Of a stretch of 31,830 nucleotides of DNA, positions 11,294 to 25,316 are shown piece by piece (position 1 is the first letter of the stretch; every line of letters starts with the position of its first letter). Source of the DNA: Rhodoferax sp. (lineage in GTDB: Bacteria; Pseudomonadota; Gammaproteobacteria; Burkholderiales; Burkholderiaceae_C). The stretch is taken from NCBI GenBank assembly GCA_031380235.1, contig JANNFW010000526.1, positions 1 through 31,830 on the forward strand. Reading direction: 5' to 3'. Under the pieces are notes generated by a model. That model worked only from the letters and a program-made list of their open reading frames with translations. It ran no database searches and was not told the DNA's origin. Made by a program: the position numbers and the translations under genes.

Positions 11294-13624
11294 TCACTGC
11301 CCCGTCCCACTGTCCAGAAACGCTGCCCAAAAATACGGATGCGGCTTTTTGCGCATCAATTGCTCCTGCGCCTCTGCCAGCGCCCTAGCCACCGGCGTTC
11401 CTCTTTTCAAACTGGCATACATCAGCCTTGACAATTCGGCCGTAGCGTCGTCGTCTACCTCCCACAGCGAGCCGACCACGTTTTGCGCGCCGGCGTATAA
11501 AAATCCCCGTGTGAGCCCCACCACATCGTCACCGCTGCTGATGCTACCTAGCCCGGTCTCGCACGCGGACAGCATCACCAGATTGGCACTCAGGCGCAGG
11601 CCGTAGATTTCGCTCACGCTGAGCATGCCGTCGTTCCTGTCGTCAGTTGCCAGCTTCAGCCTTGACTCTAATGGCGCATCGGCTGAAAACTCGCCATGCG
11701 ATGCCACGTGAATGTGCGAAAAATCATAGGCCCGTTCTTTTAGCAGTGTTTCAGTCGCGGCGCGGCGCACGAAGAGTTCACTGGTTTTGGCAAACATGGC
11801 TTGCAAATCCTGCGCTTCTATCTGCGCGGAAGGCAAGTCCAGAGCCGCCTGGCCCAAGTCGGGGTTGCCCAAAATGAGGAGCCGGTTGACCGGGTCTTTG
11901 GTAGAGGCAGAAAAGGCACGCGCCTCGGGCATCAGGCCCAACAGCATGGCCGAAGGCAAGTAGCGCAGCGACCGCCCTTGCACTAAAAATTTCTCGCCAT
12001 CGTGCAGCGCTGCAAAGGGCACATAGTGCAGGCTGCCATGCGGCACGATCAACAGGTCGCGGCCCGCAATGCTGCTTTGCATGGGGCGAAGCAAGCGCTT
12101 GTACAGCAGCTCACCGAGTTCCCGGGTTTGGCGACGGCGCTTCTTAATGGACTGCACAAACTCGCTGACATCGTCTGTCAGCCCATTGCCGTCCAACTGA
12201 AAAATACGGATCTCTGCACCTGCCAGGGTGTAGCCATACAGGGTACTGCCAGACGAAAAGAAGCCTACCAGGGTTTCCTGGGGCCCCAGCCCCGCAGCCA
12301 TCCGCTGCACGCTGACGCTGCCTGAGGTGATGAGTGATGCCAACTGGGGTGCGAGGGTTTGCAGACGGATGGCGGCCTGGTTCATCAGGCCGCTCAACTC
12401 TGCGCGGCGCGCCACATTGGTGTCGGGCACTTGGATCGACAGCTCTGCGTCAATGCGCTGAAACTCCGCAAACGCCGTAGCAATTTCAGGTGCTCGCTGG
12501 CCGTAAATGCCGAAGTCAGACTTGGTGGCCAGCATGTCCACCAGCGCGCGTGACTTGGCCTGCTCGGCCACCTCCAACACTTGGGCCTTGTTGCCCAGTC
12601 TCAACGCGGTTCGCACTATGCCGTGGTACACCGCCTGTTTGTCGCTGGCAAACCCGATCTTGCTGGTTTCGGTGCGGATGGAGCGGCGCTGCCCCTCCAC
12701 CAAGTCACGTGCTTTGCGAAAGTATTCCAGGGCCTTTTCGGTTTGCCCATCGCGCTCGGCGATGCGACCGCGCTCATACAGCACCTGCCAGTAAATCTCA
12801 GCATTCACGGTCAATTCTGGTGTGGCCAGCAGCTTGTCAAAGCCCGCCCGTGCCGGGTCTAGCCGACCCACCTCGAGCTGGGCCTTGTGCATCATGAAAG
12901 CGCGCGGCAGTTCGGTCCATACCCAATTGTTGCGTCCGGTAAAAGCCGCGCCAGACAGCAGGTTGTCGAGCATCATGTCAAAGCGAAACGATGCATCGCT
13001 GGATTCCAGCGTCACAATTACATCGGCCCAGGCCCCAATGGCCATTTGGGCGCGGGCCAGTGCCATTGCTTTGGCACGCTTGTAGTCGCTGCGAACGTTA
13101 TAGCCTTTCAGCAACTCGACGGTTTGGCGTGCTGCGGTGGGATCGCCCTGCAATGCCACCGCTACGGCCACCGCTGCGTAGGCACCGACCACCATGTCTT
13201 CGTCGCTGCTGTTTTCTTTGCGCAGCCACACCAGCGCATCATTGGCTTGCTTGCGGGCTTCTGCGTACTGTCCCAGGTCGGTCAAGGCTTCTGCCCGCAT
13301 CAGGTGGATGGCGGGCGTGGCATCATCCAGGCCAAAAATCCGCGTGCGCCGGTCGCCTTTGGCCACCAGCGTCTGCAACTGGTTCAGGCAGGGCAGCAGG
13401 CGCTCGTAGCGTTTGAGCTTGGAATAGGCAAAACACAAGGCATGCTGGTCGCGCGTGCGAAGCGGCCCCTGCTTGGCCAACGCCTCCACCTGCTTCTCTA
13501 TCAGATCGTAGCGGCCAGAGCCCGCATACCCGGTTTGATCGGTGCCATAGTCAGCCTGGGCAACCATGGCCGCCGCAGCCAGCAGCGTGGCGGCAAACCA
13601 TCTAAGCGACGGGTGCTGCTGCAT
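11294..13624 (-). CDS. Exported TPR + CHAT-domain (caspase-like, clan CD) cysteine protease
   Basis: Sec-type signal peptide (RWFAATLLAAAAMVAQA); several TPR-like helical repeats; AEQAKSRALVDML linker; CHAT motifs LLIVPHGSLHYVPFAAL, HIHVASHG (His codon 11696-11698), VMLSACETG (Cys codon 11561-11563), SLWEVDD and HPYFWAAF. Confidence 0.92.
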   Translation of the reverse strand: MQQHPSLRWFAATLLAAAAMVAQADYGTDQTGYAGSGRYDLIEKQVEALAKQGPLRTRDQHALCFAYSKLKRYERLLPCLNQLQTLVAKGDRRTRIFGLDDATPAIHLMRAEALTDLGQYAEARKQANDALVWLRKENSSDEDMVVGAYAAVAVAVALQGDPTAARQTVELLKGYNVRSDYKRAKAMALARAQMAIGAWADVIVTLESSDASFRFDMMLDNLLSGAAFTGRNNWVWTELPRAFMMHKAQLEVGRLDPARAGFDKLLATPELTVNAEIYWQVLYERGRIAERDGQTEKALEYFRKARDLVEGQRRSIRTETSKIGFASDKQAVYHGIVRTALRLGNKAQVLEVAEQAKSRALVDMLATKSDFGIYGQRAPEIATAFAEFQRIDAELSIQVPDTNVARRAELSGLMNQAAIRLQTLAPQLASLITSGSVSVQRMAAGLGPQETLVGFFSSGSTLYGYTLAGAEIRIFQLDGNGLTDDVSEFVQSIKKRRRQTRELGELLYKRLLRPMQSSIAGRDLLIVPHGSLHYVPFAALHDGEKFLVQGRSLRYLPSAMLLGLMPEARAFSASTKDPVNRLLILGNPDLGQAALDLPSAQIEAQDLQAMFAKTSELFVRRAATETLLKERAYDFSHIHVASHGEFSADAPLESRLKLATDDRNDGMLSVSEIYGLRLSANLVMLSACETGLGSISSGDDVVGLTRGFLYAGAQNVVGSLWEVDDDATAELSRLMYASLKRGTPVARALAEAQEQLMRKKPHPYFWAAFLDSGTGQ

Positions 13625-13649: not shown

Positions 13650-14906
13650 TCAGAACCAGTAGTTCACGTTGAGCGAAACACCCCTGCTGTCCTTGGCTTG
13701 CTGCAATGCCAGCGTAGCACGCAGAAAGCTGCGCGCTGACAAGGCATTTTTATTAGTGCCAAGCGAAATGGTGATCTCCTGGGAATTATTTTGGTACAGG
13801 GTTGTACCTGACAGCCGTGTGTCAGACACACCGTACTCGATCGACATTTTGCTGCCGCCAAAACTGACAGGCTGGCTCACAAACAGGCCGTTCACAAGTG
13901 CTGTGGTACGAATGTTGGGGTCAAGGGAATCCTTCAAACCGGGTGGGTTGAAGGTTTGGTAGTAGCCCAGCATGTTGCCCATTGTCAAATCGAAACTGTC
14001 AAACTCCCACGTATAGGTACTTGCAAGCGAGCCGTGAACCACGCCCACAAAAAAAGCAGCGTCTGCTGAGGCCGCCAGGCTCACGCCCAGCATGGGTGTC
14101 AGCACCCAGGCATCGGACATCGGGAAGCGGTAACCAGCAGCCAGGCGCGCCTGGTAAGACTTGCTGCCTGCTGAATCCAGCGCACCGAACGATGCGCGCA
14201 GCAGCGCCTGCCGGCGGGGGTCGATGTCATTGCGTACCGTGTAGGACAGAGGGACAGAAATGCTTTGCACTGTGGCATCACCCACCGAATGGCTGCTCAG
14301 CAACACAGCCGCGCCTATGACGCTTTGCGATCCTTGCGACGCATTGCCTTGCGACGTTGCAATGCGCGTGGCGCTCTCAGTAAAGCTGCTCGAAAAGTCA
14401 CCCATGATGGCCTGGCCCATGACTCCACCTGTCCCCGCAATGGGGCTCAGCGGCGAAACTGCGGCCTGGCGCCGTTGCAAGTCGCCATAAAGCTGGGGGT
14501 TATCACGGAAATAGTCTCGCAACAATATTGCGCTTTCTGTCCGGTTGATTCCCGTGAACGACTGGTTCACCCCGATGTCTGGTATCTGCAACGTCAACGT
14601 TGTGCTGCCACTGGCATAACCGACCAGGGTAGTGACACCCAACAGGCGTAAATTGCTCGACACCGCTGAGTTCTCTGTATAACCGGGGAACTGAACGCCG
14701 ACATCACGAATTGCAGCCTCGTAAAATTTTTCCAAGCTGTCACGGCATACCTCCTGTGTGGAGCCGTCTGAGGTGATCGTCGCCCCAAACAGAGTGTTGC
14801 AGGCCGCTTGAGCGAGCGTGGGTACCGCACACGCGAGTGCGCTTGCAACGCAAAACGCTGCTTTTGCGCGTGACGCGCGAGGGTGACGGCCGATTTTGCT
14901 TTTCAT
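13650..14906 (-). CDS. Hypothetical outer-membrane beta-barrel protein (autotransporter-barrel-like)
   Basis: AAGGAG RBS; signal peptide ending AQA; C-terminal ~230 aa of alternating amphipathic strands (YQARLAAGYRF, LTMGNMLGYY, MSIEYGV) ending in VSLNVNYWF, the aromatic-X-Phe OMP C-terminal signature. Exact family not recognised. Confidence 0.65.
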   Translation of the reverse strand: MKSKIGRHPRASRAKAAFCVASALACAVPTLAQAACNTLFGATITSDGSTQEVCRDSLEKFYEAAIRDVGVQFPGYTENSAVSSNLRLLGVTTLVGYASGSTTLTLQIPDIGVNQSFTGINRTESAILLRDYFRDNPQLYGDLQRRQAAVSPLSPIAGTGGVMGQAIMGDFSSSFTESATRIATSQGNASQGSQSVIGAAVLLSSHSVGDATVQSISVPLSYTVRNDIDPRRQALLRASFGALDSAGSKSYQARLAAGYRFPMSDAWVLTPMLGVSLAASADAAFFVGVVHGSLASTYTWEFDSFDLTMGNMLGYYQTFNPPGLKDSLDPNIRTTALVNGLFVSQPVSFGGSKMSIEYGVSDTRLSGTTLYQNNSQEITISLGTNKNALSARSFLRATLALQQAKDSRGVSLNVNYWF

Positions 14907-17389: not shown

Positions 17390-17626
17390 ACATTCAAACC
17401 GCGAGCAGCGCCCTCGACACCCGCCAGCAGTGAAGCAAAGCATGCGCTTGACCCGCACGCCAATATAATCTATGCCTTGCCTCCATGTTGTGTCTTAGGC
17501 CGAAAAAATCGTTGCCATTCCGTTCCTCTCAGCACTGCTTAACGCCTCCACCTACGGCCCGGTTGAAGTGCCTGGCAATTTGCCGAATCGGAAGCTCGCC
17601 GAAATGATCAACGAGTAGATCGGTGG

Positions 17627-18028
17627 TTATGGTGCCAGCAACAGTACTAAAGCTTGACTCGGCACAATGCGCACTCCTGGGCAATTTGTGCTGTTTTGAA
17701 GCGCAACACTGGTCATGCGTGTCGCTGGCATTCCTTGAAACAACACTGTAAAAGCGCCGGTCAGATGGCGGCTTGGCCCCATCACCGTGCCAGACGCAAC
17801 ACCTGTTGCCAACCCCGCATTGTCGCCATTGGTCATGGGAATACTCGTGCCCAAATTGTGCGCGGGCATGCCCATGATCAGGATCGTTGGGCAATTGGGT
17901 ATTGCCATAGGTCCCATCGCAATGTTTGGGTACGGAATCGGTATGGGCGCGGGAGCCGGTGGGGCTGGGGTTAAACAGACATCGGGGAAGCCCATGTCGG
18001 TTCCCATCATTTGACAATTGGCGAACAT
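17627..18028 (-). CDS. Stand-alone PAAR-like DUF4150 spike-tip protein (TagD-like)
   Basis: 133 aa; FPDVCLTP...PIPYPN...GDNAG...GVASGT...VLFQGMPATR...N are DUF4150 hallmarks; no C-terminal toxin extension. Confidence 0.92.
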   Translation of the reverse strand: MFANCQMMGTDMGFPDVCLTPAPPAPAPIPIPYPNIAMGPMAIPNCPTILIMGMPAHNLGTSIPMTNGDNAGLATGVASGTVMGPSRHLTGAFTVLFQGMPATRMTSVALQNSTNCPGVRIVPSQALVLLLAP

Positions 18029-18058
18029 TGAGCTCTCCGGTACTGGTTTGACTGGGAT

Positions 18059-18754
18059 TCATCCAAAATGGATTTGTGCACCCCGGGCCTTGATGAGGTT
18101 TTGCCCATTGAGCAGCAAGTGCTCGCCCGAGATACGGGCCAACTGCTGTGCCTCGCATTCCAGGTGTGTGGCCTGCACCCGGTCGATACCTTCGGTGGTG
18201 CGCAAATGGCTTCGACTGAAATGGCTGACGCGGTCGAAGACCGTCGATAGCATCGACCCTACGGCTTTAACAGCGGTACCGATCAGATGCAAGTCTTTGC
18301 CAATAAACTGCGCTTCGCCAGCGGTCACCGTCGCCTTGTCGGCGCGCAACAAAAAATCAGTGGTTTGAAGCGCCAGAGCAGGCGCCGCCAGCGTTAGCGC
18401 GCCCGCTTCAACCTCGATGCGTGTTGGCCCTGGGCAGCGCAGCACATAGACGGTTTCGCTACCCATTTCCGCCGTAGCTTCTTCGCGCTGGAGCACTGCA
18501 AGCACCCAAGCCTCATCGGGTGCCACGAGCAAGCAAGCCACCGTGTCACCGACCCTGGGCACCAGTAGACAACTGGCTGCTCGGCGCACGCGCGCTTGCA
18601 GCGTGCCACTGCTCAGAGTGAAGTCATCGCCATCGCACGCAGAGATCAGGCCGACGCAATGGCGCGCCGGGGTTGGCTGGGCGGCTCCCGCTTGGCTGCG
18701 TGGGTTGGTTTTAGGGCGCTGGCGTGGGCTCTTAACGGTAGTGGGGGCGGTCAT
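18059..18754 (-). CDS. DUF3540-family protein (TagC-like)
   Basis: VRRAASCLLVPRVGDTV...AWVLAVL and C-terminal ..GEHLLLNGQNLIKARGAQIHFG; position between pentapeptide and DUF4150 genes. Start moved to the ATG at 18754 because the track start overlaps the upstream gene. Confidence 0.85.
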   Translation of the reverse strand: MTAPTTVKSPRQRPKTNPRSQAGAAQPTPARHCVGLISACDGDDFTLSSGTLQARVRRAASCLLVPRVGDTVACLLVAPDEAWVLAVLQREEATAEMGSETVYVLRCPGPTRIEVEAGALTLAAPALALQTTDFLLRADKATVTAGEAQFIGKDLHLIGTAVKAVGSMLSTVFDRVSHFSRSHLRTTEGIDRVQATHLECEAQQLARISGEHLLLNGQNLIKARGAQIHFG

Positions 18755-18786
18755 GATAGGCTCCAAAAATAGCGTGAGTAAACTAC

Positions 18787-19836
18787 TTAGGCCATGGCGG
18801 TCCAGCGCTCGGCCTGATCCAGTGCGGGGTCGGTCTCTGACGCGCGGGCGCGGTCGCTCCATTGCGCATCTTGGGTAATTGCGCCGTGTAACACGGTGCG
18901 AAACATGGTGGCTTGGCGGGCATCGACTCGGCCCAGGTCGGCATGCTTAAAGTCGGCATAGGTCAGGTCGGCACCTACAAAAAGAGCGCCCGGCAACTTG
19001 GCGCCGGCAAAGTGGGTTTGATAGAGGTCGCAACCGCTGAAGTTGGCGTCGGCCAGGTTGGCCCCGGTGAACAGCGCCTGGCGCAGCTTGGCCTCGGAAA
19101 AATCAACCTCTTTGCCGCTGACCGCGCAGAAAATAGTCCCTGGCCCCACCGCCTTGACAAAGCGCGCCCCGTCGAGCTTGGCACCCTGGAAATTGCATTG
19201 CTTGAGCGCGATGCCGCTGAAATCGCAACCGCTTAAATCCGCTGCGGAAAACTGGCAGCCTTCGAGTTCCAGGCCCGCAAACGACATGCCTTGGAGCGAT
19301 GTTTTAAAGAACACATTGCGCAGCATGCGCGCGCCGCTCCACGTGAGGTGCGAAAGATCGCATTCGTTGACAGTGGTGTACTGCCAGCTGGTGTCGTCGG
19401 CACACACGTCAAGCAGCACCGACTGGCTGAACATGGCTCCATCCAATTGCGCACCGCGCAGCGTGGCATGGTCGAGCTTGCACTTGGACACCACAGCCAT
19501 CGTCAAGGCGGTTTGCGCCAGTTGTGCGTGGGCCAGGTCGCATTCGGTAAACACCGCCCCGTGCAGGTTGGCCTGGCGCAGGTCGGCATGGTCAAGCGTG
19601 CAGCGGTTAAATACCGCTTTGCGAAGGTTGGCCCCGCTGGCAATGACGGCACGCAGGTCGCACTGGTCAAACACCGTCTCGCGCATATCTGAGGCACGAA
19701 AGTCGGCTTCGGTGAAGTTGATTTTGCTGAACACGCCGCCGCCCAGCGGCAGTTGGGCATACGCGCCTTTGCGAAGGTCGAGGTTTTCGAGCGTCTCTCC
19801 GACGCTTACGGCAATACTCAATAGTTCGGGACTCAT
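18787..19836 (-). CDS. Pentapeptide-repeat protein (TagB-like)
   Basis: Nearly the whole 349 aa is A(D/N)LxX-type repeats (ADFRA, ANLRK, ADLRQ, ANLHG, ADLSG, ANLAD, ADLTY). Confidence 0.92.
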   Translation of the reverse strand: MSPELLSIAVSVGETLENLDLRKGAYAQLPLGGGVFSKINFTEADFRASDMRETVFDQCDLRAVIASGANLRKAVFNRCTLDHADLRQANLHGAVFTECDLAHAQLAQTALTMAVVSKCKLDHATLRGAQLDGAMFSQSVLLDVCADDTSWQYTTVNECDLSHLTWSGARMLRNVFFKTSLQGMSFAGLELEGCQFSAADLSGCDFSGIALKQCNFQGAKLDGARFVKAVGPGTIFCAVSGKEVDFSEAKLRQALFTGANLADANFSGCDLYQTHFAGAKLPGALFVGADLTYADFKHADLGRVDARQATMFRTVLHGAITQDAQWSDRARASETDPALDQAERWTAMA

Positions 19837-22439
19837 GGCACAGCCTGTTGTTCAGGGGTTAGGCGCGGCCAAGTGCGGGCGCGCGTGAGTAATGCGCCTT
19901 CCAACTGGGTGGAGCCGTCGAGCCGCACACGGCTGAGGTCGGCAGCAAAGAGATTGCTACGCCGCAGGTCAGTACCGCGCAGGTCGGCACCTTGCAATAC
20001 GGCGTCACTGAGGTTCACACCTGAAAGCAGGGCGTTGGCGCAGGCAGCCTTGCGCAACAGGGCACCTTTGGCGCTGGCCAGCCGCACATCGGCGCCGGCC
20101 AGTTGCACACCACTGAGGTTGGCGCTATCCAACACCGCACGCACCAATTTGGAACCGCGCAAATCGCTGCCACCAAAGTTAAAGCCGCTCAGGTTGGCTT
20201 GGCTCAAATCAGCATCCGCCATACTGCTGTTTTGCACCGCGACGGCGCCTGCGCATTGCGCCGCCATCAGTTTGGCACCGTCGAGCTTGCAGGTCACAAA
20301 GTTTGCGTTGCCAAGCTTGGCGGCGCGCATGTCTACCCCTGATAAATTCGACTCGATGAAATTGCAGGCATCAAGATTTGCTTCGATCCAGCAAATGCCT
20401 TGCAGGTTGAGCTTGTAAAAAGTCTGGCCAGCCAAACTGGCACCCGACCAATCCGCAGGACCCCAGGTAGTTTCTAGTAAATTGGCCCGCGTGAACGTAG
20501 CACGCCGCATTTGCGTATTGGCAAAGGCGCAGTGCATCAGGGTGGCCGCAGTAAAGTCCGCGTCGTCGAACACGCCCCGTGTCAGCAGGGCCTTGCCGAG
20601 GTTGGCCTGGTTGAACTTGGTGCCAATGGCTACCACGCCTTCGAGCTTGGCATGGGCCAGCACCGTGCCTGTGAAGTTGGCGCCAGACAGGTTAGTGTTG
20701 GAAAAATCGGCGCTCTCCAACCAAGCGCCTGCAAAGTTCACACCGCGCAGATCAAGCCCTGAAAAGTTCGCACCAGTGAAATCGATGCCAGCGAACATCT
20801 TGATGCCTGCGGCCACTGCACGCGCCATTTCATCGCGCAGGGGCACGGCCTCTTCGGGGGCCATGGCAAATGCAGGGGGCTGCATGTGCGCCGACTGCAG
20901 ATAGCCAGCGCGGTGGGCATCTTCGATTTGGCACAGCTTAGGGTACAAGGGCGCCAAATCTAGCGGCTTGGTGCCCATCGCAACCTGGGCTCGCATTTGG
21001 GCCAGATTCTGATCGGGGTTGTAGTTGGGCGGACCACGGTGCTGCACCTTGGCCAGGTCGATTTTGTTGGCATCGGCAAAGGCAATGGCCCGCTCCAGCG
21101 CCGTCACTGCATCTTCCACGGCGGCCCACTGCGCCGCTTCAGCTTCTTTGAATTTTTTTTCGAGGTAGGGTGGCAGGGCATCACCCGTGGGCACCTTGTC
21201 GCGCCGCGGCATTTTGATGCCCAGCGCATCGGGGTCTTGCCCCTGCGCGGTCGCCTTGTCGCGCGCCAACTCCACATCGATCTGTGCGCGGCGGTATTGC
21301 GCTTCGCCTTGAAGGCCTTCCATGGCGAAGGGCTCTTTAGCAGCCTCTACATCGGGGTCGGCGGTGCTGGCGCCTTCAGGCAATAAATCGTTGTCGATGA
21401 TGGCGTAGATGGCACCCATCTTGGGGTCGGCGCGTTTGGCGGCGGCGTCCAAGTAATGCGCATCCGGCTTTTTGTCCCCGTTGCGCTCAACAGCGCCCAT
21501 CAGGCTCACGATGTCGGAGCCGTCGTCAGTGTCGGTTTCGGCCAACCCTTGAAAAATAGCGATGCAGCGCAGCGCATGCGGAAAGAACCACACCGTGGTC
21601 AAACGCAACGGCACTTCGCGAAGTTTGGGTTCGCCCTGCGGCATCTGGTAACCTGCAAACACGCGGGCTGCAAAGCCCGGCAAACGCCCTTCAACCAGGG
21701 CTTGGCTGGGGTGCATGTTTTCAAATGCAAACGATTCGGTGCCGCTCAGCGCACCGCCCATCCACTGGTCGGGCGGCGCCAGGTTGAAGTAGCGCCAGTC
21801 GGTGTCGGGCGCAAAACCGGGGGAGTGTTGCTTGAGGTAATCGGCGTCATAGGTACCCCGGTACTGAGCCCGATGCGGGTGCACCGCATCGAACGCTCCA
21901 AAGCCGGCCGGGGCAACAGCTTGGTCAGGCCGCAGCAGGCGGTCATGCGGCAACTCGGTGTTGGGCAGCCAGGTAATGCCTTCCTTGGTTTGCCGACCAC
22001 GGCCCAGACTGTTGGGTTCAAAATCTGAGCCGCCGTAGGCTGCCGACCAATCGAGTGGCATCGACTCAAAGGGCCTGGGTGAGCTGGCCTTTTTGCCGTC
22101 CCAGTAGCGATCACCAAATACCAGCAGGGTTTTTTCTACAGCGCCAAAGCGGGCGCGCACAGCGCAGGCATTGGGAACGGCATGGGTTCGGTCTTTGGGT
22201 AAAAAAGCTTGGCCGTGCACCAAAAATTCGGGCGTGAGCTTGGCCACACCTTCGTCAATCAGCGGCTGCACCATTTCTTTGGCAAGGAAGGCCCACATTG
22301 ACTGTTCGGCCCACAAGGCACCGCGCTCACCCTGCTCAAACGGCAGGTGCAGGTAGGCGCTGATGGATAGGCCAAAGCGCTTGCGAAACTCAATGGGCCG
22401 GGTGGACAGGCCTAGCGCTTGTGGTTTAACAACTTGCAT
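19833..22439 (-). CDS. DUF2169 adaptor fused to C-terminal pentapeptide repeats (TagAB-like)
   Basis: N-terminal DUF2169 motifs (KTLLVFGDRYW, PLDWSAAYGG, PAGFG, RAQYRGTYD..YL, YFNLAPPDQW, LEGRLPG-like VEGRLPG); about 300 C-terminal residues of pentapeptide repeats; directly downstream of vgrG. Confidence 0.92.
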   Translation of the reverse strand: MQVVKPQALGLSTRPIEFRKRFGLSISAYLHLPFEQGERGALWAEQSMWAFLAKEMVQPLIDEGVAKLTPEFLVHGQAFLPKDRTHAVPNACAVRARFGAVEKTLLVFGDRYWDGKKASSPRPFESMPLDWSAAYGGSDFEPNSLGRGRQTKEGITWLPNTELPHDRLLRPDQAVAPAGFGAFDAVHPHRAQYRGTYDADYLKQHSPGFAPDTDWRYFNLAPPDQWMGGALSGTESFAFENMHPSQALVEGRLPGFAARVFAGYQMPQGEPKLREVPLRLTTVWFFPHALRCIAIFQGLAETDTDDGSDIVSLMGAVERNGDKKPDAHYLDAAAKRADPKMGAIYAIIDNDLLPEGASTADPDVEAAKEPFAMEGLQGEAQYRRAQIDVELARDKATAQGQDPDALGIKMPRRDKVPTGDALPPYLEKKFKEAEAAQWAAVEDAVTALERAIAFADANKIDLAKVQHRGPPNYNPDQNLAQMRAQVAMGTKPLDLAPLYPKLCQIEDAHRAGYLQSAHMQPPAFAMAPEEAVPLRDEMARAVAAGIKMFAGIDFTGANFSGLDLRGVNFAGAWLESADFSNTNLSGANFTGTVLAHAKLEGVVAIGTKFNQANLGKALLTRGVFDDADFTAATLMHCAFANTQMRRATFTRANLLETTWGPADWSGASLAGQTFYKLNLQGICWIEANLDACNFIESNLSGVDMRAAKLGNANFVTCKLDGAKLMAAQCAGAVAVQNSSMADADLSQANLSGFNFGGSDLRGSKLVRAVLDSANLSGVQLAGADVRLASAKGALLRKAACANALLSGVNLSDAVLQGADLRGTDLRRSNLFAADLSRVRLDGSTQLEGALLTRARTWPRLTPEQQAVP

Positions 22440-22454
22440 GGCTGCTTGAAACCA

Positions 22455-25316
22455 TCAAGAACCACTACCTGTGGGTGGGCGGAACGGTTGGGACGGCTCC
22501 ACCTGCCCATCGGCGGGTGCTGGAGCGGCCGCAGTGCCATCGGCATTGGGCGCAGTTCCATCCCCAAGTTTCTCTCCACCTGTCTTCAGGCCCTTTACCG
22601 CTACGATCCCCTCGCCCAAAGCAATGGCTGCCGTGCCCAGCACCGGGATCGCTCCAATGATGCCCTCGATACGGCGATTGCGCGTGACCCTTGCGAGCGA
22701 CGACAACCGGCCCGCAAGCCCCGGCAACCCAGCCTGCTCGGCTTCCTTGGCTGCGGTGTCGAGCGCAGTGGCTGCGTCGGCATATTGTTGCAATGTTGCC
22801 CTTACGCCAGCCGCTGCGCTGGCACCCCCTGCAACGGCGCTCAGAAACCCGGCCACGGCAGCACCGCCCGCGCCACCCGCGCCCGCACCCGGCGTAAACG
22901 TATGCAGCGCTGCCTGCTTCACTTCCATCGGAAAGGCCTGAATTTCAGGCGCAGCACCCAAAGAGAGTTTGACCCCCAGCGCGGTCTCAATCGCAACACC
23001 AACGAAATTGGACATGGATAGCGCCAACGCATTGTCGATGCTCATGCCTATGAAGGTGGAGCTCGTCATGCCCAGGTTGGCTTCGCTGTTGTTGCCGATG
23101 TAGCCACTGGTGTTGGGGCCAAGCACCGTGGTGTTGGAACCAATGGACGTGTTGTCGATGCTGCCCACCGCCATCAGCTCGATGCCGGTGTTGCTCATCA
23201 ACTTAATTTTATTGGCCATCAGGTGCAGCGGGCCAGTGGGCACCGTGATGTATTTGGAGCTGGCACCGGTGACCATCCAATCGATATGGCCCGCCTCAAA
23301 ACTCATGGAGGCAGCTTTGTAGCTGAGCTTGCCGCTGACGGTGACGGTTTGATTGCCGATGACGCTGCGGGTCTCACCAGCCTTGGAAACATCAGATCGG
23401 GCGCCGACGACGGTCGTAGTTTGCGTGCCGGAGACGGTTAGGGCATCGTTGGCATCCATAAAGCTGTCGCGATTGCCCACGACCTGGTTGTTTTGCTTGC
23501 CTTTGACGGTATTTTTTTGGTCCACGACCACCATATTGGTGTCGTTGCGCGTTACCGTGCTTTTGCGGTCGCGGTCTACATGGTTGGTTTGGTCGCGTTT
23601 GACTGTGGTCGACTGGTCGCGGTCTACGGAGGTCGATTGGTCGTTTTCGACCGACGTACTCATGTCTTTCTCAGCATGGATATTGATGTTCTCTGCCCCC
23701 TTCTTGTCCTCAAACATGATTTCGTTGTAATTGGCAGGCGTGCCACCGGGCGTTGATCGCGTCTTGAAGCCGCTTTGGGTCCCGGAGGCCTTGTAGGGAA
23801 TCGGTTGTTCGTTGTTGTACAGGCGCCCGGTGATGACGGGCCGATCCGGGTCGCCGTTCAAGAAATCAACAATCACCTCCTGACCGATACGCGGCGTGAA
23901 ATAACCACCCCAGCCTTTGCCGGCCCACGGCTGCGACACCCGCACCCAGGCAGTAGATTTGTCATCATTGGTGCCATAGCGGTCCCAGTGAAACTGCACC
24001 TTGACGCGGCCGAACTCATCCACGTCAATCTCTTTGCCGGCAGCACCCACCACGATGGCTGACTGCGGACCAGGCATGACAACGCCGGGGGTGAGCCGGG
24101 CAGGCCGGTATGGTTGCTTTGACGGGATGACGGTTAGCAAAAACGAGCTGGTGCCACGCACGCCTGTACGCAGGCTCGGGGTGGTTTCTACGATGTGTTC
24201 AATCGTGTCGAGCGTTTGCACGTTGATGGCATCGTCATTCAGCGCCTCGTGCAGCACTTTCATGATGGACACGCTGCTTACGGTGGAATTGACGCCTTCA
24301 TAACCCGGATGACTCATGACAAACGTGCAGCCCGCAATTAGGTAGTCGCCATCGCAGATTCCGTCCGGGTCCCCTTCAAAGGTGAAGGTACTGCCCACCG
24401 CGACGTCGGGCCAGCCGGTGACCGCCCAGTGGCGCTGCCGGCGCGCCGCCAACTCGTCACCCCGGATTTTGGCGCTGACCTCGGCGTCTTCGCTGTTGAA
24501 GTAGCCCGCTGGAGACTCAAACATTTCAAAATCGGCCAGGTCGTGCTCTTCGGCCGCGTTGATCGTGGCACCGATTTTTTTGCGGATGGTTTTAAAGTTG
24601 CTGTCGGAACCCGCATGATGGCCCGTGTCCAGCCGGTCAGCACTGACCCAGCGCACAATCTCGTTGAAACGGCCATTACCCAATCCGTCACGGGTGTGGC
24701 GCAAAGTGCCCTGTGCGGGCAACTCTGCATGCGCGATGTCGCTGCTGTCAGACAGGTACATAGTGCCGGGTTTGTCGTGCCCGTCAAACCAGTAGTAAAC
24801 GCCTTCTTCTTCCAGTAAATGGGACAAAAACTGGTAGTCGCTCTCAGCGTGCTGCACGCAGTACCGACGTGGGTTGTGCTTGCCCGTCACATTGTCAACA
24901 TTGGTTTTTTTGAACCGCTTGATGGGGCTGTCTTCAAACACCGCATCAGCAACTTCCAGAACGGTTTTTTCCTGGTAGATGCGTGCATTGGTGCGGCGCG
25001 TCAGCAGCCAAAACCAGGAACGCAAGCTGATGTGGTATTGAAAATACCGGCTTCCCACGGGGCCCCCGCGCACAATGCGCACGGCATGGCCCTGAAAATG
25101 CCGCTCATGGCTTTCATCCTGGGCGTCCATGAAATAGGCACCCACGTTAAAGGCCTTGCCTAGGATATCTTTGGGATCGATCTGGCGATCCCTTGAGAGC
25201 ACGGTCAGTTCGTAGAAGGACGGTCGCGACAGCCCCTCGTGGCCGACGATGCTCCAAAACATGAGTTCACCGTTAACTGGCGAGTCGCTTTTGATGTCGA
25301 AGGCATGATCGGGCAT
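22455..25316 (-). CDS. vgrG: VgrG spike protein with C-terminal extension (953 aa)
   Basis: EGLSRPSFY.L.V, YCVQHAESDYQFLSHLLEEEG.YYWF, PGPQSAIVVG, DEFGRVKVQFHWDR, WVRVSQPWAGKGWG, PRIGQEVIVDFLNGDPDRP, NEIMFEDKKGAE.I.IHAEKDM, 8-residue gp5-like repeats, then an extra Gly/Ala-rich hydrophobic tail. Confidence 0.97.
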   Translation of the reverse strand: MPDHAFDIKSDSPVNGELMFWSIVGHEGLSRPSFYELTVLSRDRQIDPKDILGKAFNVGAYFMDAQDESHERHFQGHAVRIVRGGPVGSRYFQYHISLRSWFWLLTRRTNARIYQEKTVLEVADAVFEDSPIKRFKKTNVDNVTGKHNPRRYCVQHAESDYQFLSHLLEEEGVYYWFDGHDKPGTMYLSDSSDIAHAELPAQGTLRHTRDGLGNGRFNEIVRWVSADRLDTGHHAGSDSNFKTIRKKIGATINAAEEHDLADFEMFESPAGYFNSEDAEVSAKIRGDELAARRQRHWAVTGWPDVAVGSTFTFEGDPDGICDGDYLIAGCTFVMSHPGYEGVNSTVSSVSIMKVLHEALNDDAINVQTLDTIEHIVETTPSLRTGVRGTSSFLLTVIPSKQPYRPARLTPGVVMPGPQSAIVVGAAGKEIDVDEFGRVKVQFHWDRYGTNDDKSTAWVRVSQPWAGKGWGGYFTPRIGQEVIVDFLNGDPDRPVITGRLYNNEQPIPYKASGTQSGFKTRSTPGGTPANYNEIMFEDKKGAENINIHAEKDMSTSVENDQSTSVDRDQSTTVKRDQTNHVDRDRKSTVTRNDTNMVVVDQKNTVKGKQNNQVVGNRDSFMDANDALTVSGTQTTTVVGARSDVSKAGETRSVIGNQTVTVSGKLSYKAASMSFEAGHIDWMVTGASSKYITVPTGPLHLMANKIKLMSNTGIELMAVGSIDNTSIGSNTTVLGPNTSGYIGNNSEANLGMTSSTFIGMSIDNALALSMSNFVGVAIETALGVKLSLGAAPEIQAFPMEVKQAALHTFTPGAGAGGAGGAAVAGFLSAVAGGASAAAGVRATLQQYADAATALDTAAKEAEQAGLPGLAGRLSSLARVTRNRRIEGIIGAIPVLGTAAIALGEGIVAVKGLKTGGEKLGDGTAPNADGTAAAPAPADGQVEPSQPFRPPTGSGS

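Follow-up and report, generated by a model that had tools for sequence, protein, structure and literature searches.

A conserved hydrophobic C-terminal tail with a predicted helical hairpin on a Class III-type VgrG from Rhodoferax sp.

The VgrG protein and its C-terminal tail

The DNA examined here, referred to as the window, is a whole contig of 31,830 nucleotides (31.8 kb; JANNFW010000526.1) from a Rhodoferax sp. genome (GCA_031380235.1) that is ~81% complete and spread over 818 contigs. The window carries genes of a type VI secretion system (T6SS), including vgrG (tssI), which lies on the minus strand at 22455..25316 and encodes a protein of 953 residues (P0001). A gp27-like hub, an OB-fold and a gp5-like beta-prism occur in order, as the Pfam domains Phage_GPD (residues 26-334, 8e-63), Phage_base_V (431-500, 1.5e-16) and Gp5_trimer_C (515-627, 1e-31). 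The NCBIfam models TIGR03361 (1e-136) and TIGR01646 both score above their cut-offs, and VgrG1 in the PDB matches the protein at 1e-100. Pfam recognizes no domain past residue 627. The protein continues well beyond this point and ends in a tail that, judged from sequence, is a real and conserved addition past the beta-prism.

The prism itself appears to extend further than the Pfam models indicate. Residues 628-809 (22890..23435, minus strand) lack a Pfam model but look like more prism-like sequence; they end in hydrophobic strands and a conserved L-x-x-F-x-P-G motif, and 64 relatives of this region were found. Kyte-Doolittle hydropathy was calculated over the whole protein in windows of 19 residues with a threshold of 1.2. 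This value is exceeded only at window centres 767-781, 819-833 (maximum 1.60) and 891-901 (maximum 1.88), and all hydrophobic windows thus fall in the last ~190 residues. The peak at 767-781 is ascribed to a class-wide prism tip, because other VgrGs belonging to the Tvp system of Class III, as defined in Monlezun, Earl and Coulthurst 2026 (PMC13373197), end in similar hydrophobic strand-like sequence. The tail proper likely begins at about residue 810 and comprises ~145 residues past the end of beta-prism homology (~809). A relative of 787 residues, encoded on a 6.5-kb metagenome contig (P0064), aligns with the VgrG through residue 793 and ends 25 residues on, just past the Pro-Gly and a Gly/Ala run, where the tail begins. 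Either it lacks the tail naturally or its gene is truncated. The prism-like sequence up to ~809 is aligned with this relative, and in the AlphaFold2 model of the monomer the predicted local distance difference test score (pLDDT) is mostly below 50 past residue 700.

The tail opens with a Gly/Ala/Ser-rich hydrophobic stretch (segment 1, residues 810-837, 22806..22889, hydropathy up to 1.60), followed by helix A (residues 838-861, 22734..22805), which carries a conserved T-L-K/Q-Q-Y-x-D-A motif and is modelled as a helix by AlphaFold2. A modelled turn (L-P-G-L, residues 862-865) leads into the polar part of helix B (residues 866-886; together 22659..22733), in which R870 and L871 are invariant. 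The second hydrophobic stretch (segment 2, residues 887-908, 22593..22658, hydropathy up to 1.88) is modelled as a continuation of helix B. The variable end (residues 909-953, 22458..22592) is low-complexity sequence rich in Pro, Ala, Gly and Asp, with loosely kept N-A-D-G-T and E-P-S/T-Q-x-F/W motifs; all of these parts are encoded on the minus strand. Segment 1 is 69% Gly, Ala or Ser, and its 13 overlapping small-xxx-small-xxx-small patterns are nearly trivial given this composition; segment 2 has none.

These features agree largely with an original prediction made from the DNA alone. The two Gly/Ala-rich hydrophobic segments that it had described in the C-terminus are recovered as hydropathy windows, and its Pro/Ala/Asp-rich low-complexity end is present. 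The first segment lies where it had been placed (~22800-22890), whereas the second had been put slightly off, at ~22600-22670. The stretch between them, described as an amphipathic helix, is helical in both structure models. Helix A is moderately amphipathic, with an Eisenberg moment of 0.40, but helix B, at 0.14, is not.

AlphaFold2 was run on the tail alone, with a 17-row alignment, and on the full-length VgrG as a monomer. The tail-only model is an antiparallel helical hairpin whose two helices span tail residues 60-89 and 93-136 (832-861 and 865-908 of the protein). Its mean pLDDT is just 58.8; block means reach 88-96 over tail residues 71-110, and those along helix A are 67 (61-70), 89 (71-80) and 96 (81-90). 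In the full-length model these helices recur at 827-861, 865-888 and 894-907, with pLDDT below ~55, and segment 1 is below 50 in both models. The modelling therefore points to a helical hairpin and not to further beta-helix, the latter being what would have spoken against the original prediction. A correct hairpin would place the two hydrophobic stretches next to each other at the open end, with charged residues toward the turn.

Searches with the tail did not assign it to a known family or fold. It has no Pfam match at E ≤ 10 and no NCBIfam match at E ≤ 1, and a Foldseek search gave 0 matches at E ≤ 0.001. The best ESM Atlas score of 0.82 is within the chance range. A wide VIA-align search reached a best Z of 9.6, under the value of ~13 below which, according to the tool, a match may be merely a common helical arrangement. 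Its matches were tied generic hairpins (ferritin-like proteins, ESCRT-III/PspA/Vipp1, designed bundles, colicin Ia and gp41), and no fold was assigned from them. The best PDB profile match was judged too weak; it was to the cargo protein of a crAss-like phage, with E = 0.002, and covered a stretch rich in Ala. A literature search of a limited collection found no description of the tail, which is regarded here as an undescribed C-terminal module on a specialized VgrG of the known Class III kind.

The tail is conserved wherever it occurs. In an alignment of 60 VgrG relatives that are 41-97% identical overall, it is present in 59, and retention of the layout in 59 of 60 is more than chance would give. 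G810 is invariant (60/60), as are G830, Q844, Y845, A848, R870 and L871 (59/59); L852 (57/59), T841 (52/59) and R881 (51/59) are nearly so. The invariant residues argue for a functional fold and not a spacer. Columns 810-834 are small or hydrophobic nearly throughout. G894 accounts for 53 of the 57 residues in its column, and segment 2 is otherwise variable in sequence. In a survey of 17 tails with divergence down to 32% identity, segment 1 is hydrophobic in all 17 and segment 2 in 16 of them. Length and composition are free to differ over the last ~45 residues, with poly-Pro or poly-Gly/Ser runs in relatives. Three Variovorax loci, L001 (9001-9723), L002 (9001-9852) and L003 (9001-9780), encode near-identical tails that differ mainly in the length of the terminal poly-Pro run, giving VgrGs of 1011, 1054 and 1030 residues, respectively. 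A diverged Variovorax tail subfamily (P0047-P0063, e.g. P0050 and P0058) matches the tail profile at E values of 1e-10 to 1e-17 and keeps the hairpin motif; its first segment is longer, and the second segment of P0050 is a very long Gly-rich run.

The distribution of the tail is narrow. A phmmer search against 1.84 billion cluster representatives retrieved 14 proteins, several of them fragments. The tail profile matches 74 of the 78 proteins collected; the misses are a wrong-frame open reading frame, a low-complexity protein, a truncated entry of 760 residues and P0064. Carriers include Variovorax spp., Xenophilus aerolatus and unclassified Burkholderiaceae metagenome-assembled genomes, and the named ones are all Variovorax-like Comamonadaceae. 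In an even sample of the family of the window, 14 of 401 genomes match a model that also spans part of the prism, 10 of them strongly (E < 1e-30) and over five genera; with the same model, two other species of the window's genus in this sample gave no match. One metagenome protein of 944 residues (P0011) has the tail at ~60-223 and continues in frame into a DUF2169 protein; the join could reflect a genuine fusion, a frameshift or an artefact of gene calling.

Class III VgrGs exist both with and without the tail. The original prediction had called for comparison with other VgrGs linked to DUF2169-pentapeptide genes, and this comparison gave a divided result: the tail profile matches 4 of 4 Variovorax loci but 0 of 7 Class III loci from other families of the order. 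The Class III VgrGs of those families are 779-874 residues long and have hydrophobic strand-like ends; they are joined by one weakly VgrG-like open reading frame of 954 residues. The 874-residue Class III-linked VgrG of one such family (L039, 6021-8645) has an Asn/Val/Lys-rich, heptad-like end that resembles a coiled coil, a C-terminal extension of another kind on this type of spike.

The gene neighbourhood

The T6SS core genes in the window are tssA, tssB, tssC and hcp on the plus strand and tssE, tssF, tssG, clpV, vgrG and fha on the minus strand. The minus strand also carries the DUF2169-pentapeptide, pentapeptide and DUF3540 genes and those for a PP2C phosphatase, a beta-barrel-like protein and a TPR-CHAT protein. 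Directly after vgrG, all on the minus strand, lie the genes of a Tvp module. The first, tvpAB (tagAB, 19833..22439), starts 15 nt past the vgrG stop and encodes 868 residues with matches to Pfam DUF2169 (1.6e-61) and Pentapeptide (5e-44). It is followed by tvpB (tagB, 18787..19836), for a pentapeptide-repeat protein of 349 residues (Pfam Pentapeptide, 5e-52), and by tvpC (tagC, 18059..18862), with Pfam DUF3540 (6.8e-35) at residues 73-267, whose true start probably lies downstream of the first ATG. The last gene (17627..18028) encodes a PAAR-like tip protein of 133 residues (DUF4150/Tox-PAAR-like, 'PIPY'; Pfam PF13665, 1.8e-40) with an I-P-I-P-Y-P-N motif. The longest open reading frame past the DUF3540 gene, of 209 residues at 17529-18158 on the same strand, is a wrong-frame artefact, and the real gene is that of the PAAR-like protein in another frame.

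By gene content, the VgrG belongs to the Class III Tvp-associated group. The succession of DUF2169-pentapeptide, pentapeptide, DUF3540 and PAAR-like genes after vgrG, which the original prediction had likened to the surroundings of Burkholderia vgrG5, is borne out by Pfam and by the description of Class III loci (PMC13373197). The window shares the order vgrG-tvpAB-tvpB-tvpC-PAAR-like with 8 of 8 further loci that bear the tail. Conservation within the module is highest for the PAAR-like protein, at 83-90% identity over 8 loci versus 36-77% for the Tvp proteins. In the 8 other tail-bearing loci, the gap between vgrG and tvpAB is ≤43 nt, too short to hold an immunity gene, and no immunity-like gene directly follows vgrG in any of the 9 loci. 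A search of the 81%-complete genome for DUF3192, the family of the immunity protein Vai1, gave no match, and the controls of the same search were likewise silent.

Other parts of the cluster vary among loci. Only one VgrG was detected in the 81%-complete, 818-contig genome. Four Variovorax loci (L001, L002, L003 and L006) encode a second, tail-less VgrG of 792-809 residues ~5 kb downstream, directly after the Class III module; it lies at about 14.2-17 kb in L002, L003 and L006 and within the stretch 14509-18475 of L001. In L001, DUF6484 and DUF2169 genes come next, and the whole forms a tandem Class II Tvp module. The window has fha in the place of the second VgrG. The T6SS cluster of the window is closed, past fha and the PP2C phosphatase gene, by the gene for a caspase-like TPR-CHAT protein (11294-13624, minus strand). 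Adjoining it is a gene for a beta-barrel-like protein of 418 residues with a weak match to an autotransporter beta-domain (13650-14906, minus strand). The same pair, in the same order, lies behind the module in another genus (L065, 14491-18103).

Possible roles of the tail

A role at the membrane of a target cell is the reading preferred here, and it is held with slightly less than even confidence. The protein would be a specialized ('evolved') VgrG whose tip-borne tails enter target membranes after having been shielded by the Tvp/PAAR complex. This reading is preferred because the tail is an add-on, is constrained, appears helical and not prism-like, and contains the only strongly hydrophobic non-prism stretches beside the tip. 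It includes, with the same reserve, a long spike of the Class III type in which each of the three chains bears a module of ~100 residues adjoining the PAAR-like tip. The module would be an antiparallel hairpin with a polar turn end and an open end formed by two adjacent hydrophobic stretches (~821-837 and 887-908). In the producing cell, the accessory complex of TvpAB, TvpB and PAAR would shield these stretches. Firing would drive the tip into the target membrane, where the three tails may partition into the bilayer as two-helix membrane hairpins or interfacial wedges and perturb or depolarize it. Suitable targets could be a eukaryotic grazer or a fungus; the lack of an immunity-like gene after vgrG suggests, weakly, that a sibling bacterium is the less likely target. 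As for the evolved VgrG with a membrane hairpin that had been predicted from the DNA, the conserved, predicted helical add-on is upheld, whereas membrane activity (fusogenic, pore-forming or translocating) is a candidate function suggested by composition and analogy.

Several observations weigh against a membrane role. The hairpin is confident in the tail-only model alone; pLDDT in the full-length model is below 50 at residues 700-848, 859-867 and 880-953. Structure searches with the tail return only generic helical hairpins. Gly and Ala make up nearly all of residues 810-820, which may be a plain flexible linker, leaving 821-837 as the hydrophobic part of segment 1. The sequence of segment 2 is poorly kept, and the segment is missing in 1 of 17 tails (P0026). 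Position-independent insertion energies, computed over 19 residues, are positive for both segments (+1.8 to +8 kcal/mol), and values of +3.7 and +4.4 kcal/mol come from the same scale. Neither segment therefore looks like a classical transmembrane helix, and by sequence both score as marginal membrane helices. The lack of an immunity gene is unusual for an antibacterial membrane toxin and points away either from bacterial targets or from toxicity altogether. The isolated C-terminal region of Serratia VgrG1, which belongs to a Class III Tvp system, is reported to have no specific toxicity (PMC13373197). Finally, it is membrane insertion, toxicity, shielding and the target that we infer, over and above the anatomy, conservation, helical prediction, context and rarity of the tail.

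The main rival is that the tail docks onto accessory proteins or PAAR. The hairpin and its flanks would bind the pentapeptide-repeat parts of TvpAB and TvpB, the PAAR-like tip or the baseplate cavity, and the tail would stabilize or time assembly of the spike with no effect on targets. This explanation is a serious one, though less likely than membrane entry. The invariant residues of the tail include polar or aromatic ones (Q844, Y845, R870 and R881), as expected of a protein-protein interface. The genes tvpAB, tvpB, tvpC and that of the PAAR-like protein are the sole genes invariably linked to the tail (9/9 loci), and no immunity gene is present. Tvp complexes have been proposed to steady the VgrG tip and fill the baseplate cavity (PMC13373197). 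However, the Class III VgrGs of 779-874 residues from other families do without the tail beside the same kind of accessory genes, and the 787-residue P0064 lacks it, which indicates that the tail is dispensable for Tvp-type assembly in general. Moreover, two conserved hydrophobic stretches and a variable Pro-rich end exceed the needs of a docking helix.

It is improbable that the tail serves as a cargo adaptor, that is, as a helical handle recruiting a separately encoded effector or adaptor in the manner of other VgrG C-termini that bind DUF4123 adaptors or Tle1. Non-toxic C-terminal extensions of VgrG that recruit effectors are summarized in the description of the Tvp systems (PMC13373197), and a conserved hairpin of the predicted kind could act as such a handle. 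Yet there is no DUF4123, DUF1795 or obvious effector gene beside the module in the window or in Variovorax L001, and the conserved TPR-CHAT and beta-barrel-like proteins are encoded several genes off. Less likely still is a non-functional low-complexity appendage or flexible spacer that tolerates Gly/Ala/Pro-rich sequence, since its merits (the small-residue composition of segment 1, the freedom of the last ~45 residues and low pLDDT outside the hairpin) are set against six invariant post-prism positions in 59 of 59 tails, the confidently predicted hairpin and a layout that persists down to 32-41% tail identity.

A more elaborate form of membrane entry seems a long shot. Class I viral fusion proteins are trimers of hairpins. 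By analogy, the three tails could form a trimer-of-hairpins device for insertion or fusion, a bacterial counterpart of the viral class I fusion module. Each chain would contribute an insertion stretch rich in Gly and Ala, a pair of antiparallel helices and another membrane stretch. Once fired, the hairpins would zip together to yield a six-segment membrane lesion or to pull two bilayers together.

Fusion of host membranes by Burkholderia VgrG5 and depolarization of rivals by Serratia VgrG1, which has no recognizable toxin domain, are both open problems and share one gene arrangement. The tail described here sits on a spike of that kind as a compact, conserved module with clear limits, in non-pathogenic bacteria of soil and rhizosphere. 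If membrane-active, it would offer a safe, tractable system for the shielding of a spike-borne hydrophobic element by Tvp proteins and its later delivery into a membrane. If it is a docking element only, it would show how Class III accessory complexes grip the spike. Were the trimer of hairpins true, the VgrG5 fusion and VgrG1 depolarization problems would gain a harmless soil-bacterium model with a recognizable structural logic.

Comparison with known systems

The resemblance to class I fusion proteins lies in the order of elements on a trimeric spike: a Gly/Ala-rich hydrophobic stretch, a helix, a turn, a second helix and a second hydrophobic stretch. No homology was found, and HIV gp41 ranked 47 among the tied generic hairpins (Z 8.4). 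Class I proteins form a six-helix bundle; for the tail, a monomer hairpin is predicted. Glycine-zipper toxins and translocation motifs, such as Agrobacterium Tde1 and Staphylococcus EsxX (PMC10240207, PMC12744356), likewise have hydrophobic stretches rich in small residues; unlike these, segment 2 of the VgrG lacks the small-xxx-small pattern, and there is no sequence homology. The prePAAR effectors carry transmembrane domains that are shielded by chaperones (PMC7773334). As in those effectors with their Eag (DUF1795) chaperones, hydrophobic and putatively membrane-directed segments would be placed at the tip of the spike and have to be shielded until it fires. In prePAAR effectors, however, the segments are N-terminal to PAAR and are followed by a toxin domain, whereas here they are on VgrG, with no toxin domain and with accessory proteins of the Tvp type.

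In function, the nearest counterparts are VgrG5 and VgrG1 of Serratia marcescens Db10. As described for the VgrG1 system (PMC13373197), its locus and that of the window both have the five-gene set of VgrG, TvpAB (DUF2169-pentapeptide), TvpB (pentapeptide), TvpC (DUF3540) and a DUF4150 Paar. The VgrG of the window appears to have, like VgrG1, a long prism that ends hydrophobic, and in both a membrane-directed activity is suspected in the VgrG itself. Serratia VgrG1 has 786 residues, the whole C-terminal end of which is modelled as prism; its last 26 residues are hydrophobic, and the protein is tied to depolarization of the inner membrane (PMC13373197). The VgrG of the window, in contrast, has ~145 extra residues with a predicted helical hairpin. 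Depolarization by VgrG1 is countered by Vai1 (DUF3192), which is encoded directly downstream of vgrG1 (PMC13373197), whereas in the window tvpAB starts within 15 nt of vgrG.

VgrG5 of Burkholderia thailandensis and B. pseudomallei has the same gene organization plus an extra, characterized C-terminal domain (PMC13373197). This domain, taken as residues 718-1012 (10.1101/2022.02.24.481536), has a predicted transmembrane segment, and its removal led to loss of fusion and of virulence (10.1101/2023.02.09.527577). A 2026 review still calls its function unknown (PMC13577199). Any homology between this domain and the tail would be conjectural. The 14 phmmer matches to the tail included no protein of the size of VgrG5 (~1,000 residues, from outside the Comamonadaceae), the presence of VgrG5 in that library being unconfirmed. 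Two primers for B. thailandensis vgrG5 (10.1101/2022.02.24.481536) were tried as a route to the sequence and set aside. The single match to the first arose by chance and lies in the response-regulator gene of an unrelated metagenome-assembled genome; the second matched 8 times, never in a named Burkholderia record, and the one 'Burkholderiaceae bacterium' contig among these had no VgrG. In T6SS-5 as in the window, a specialized VgrG of ~1,000 residues is followed by tagAB, tagB, tagC and PAAR-like genes. Like the tail, the VgrG5 domain has no known fold or function, and a transmembrane segment is predicted in it. Its occurrence is described as limited to the pseudomallei group, whereas the tail described here is limited to Variovorax-like Comamonadaceae.

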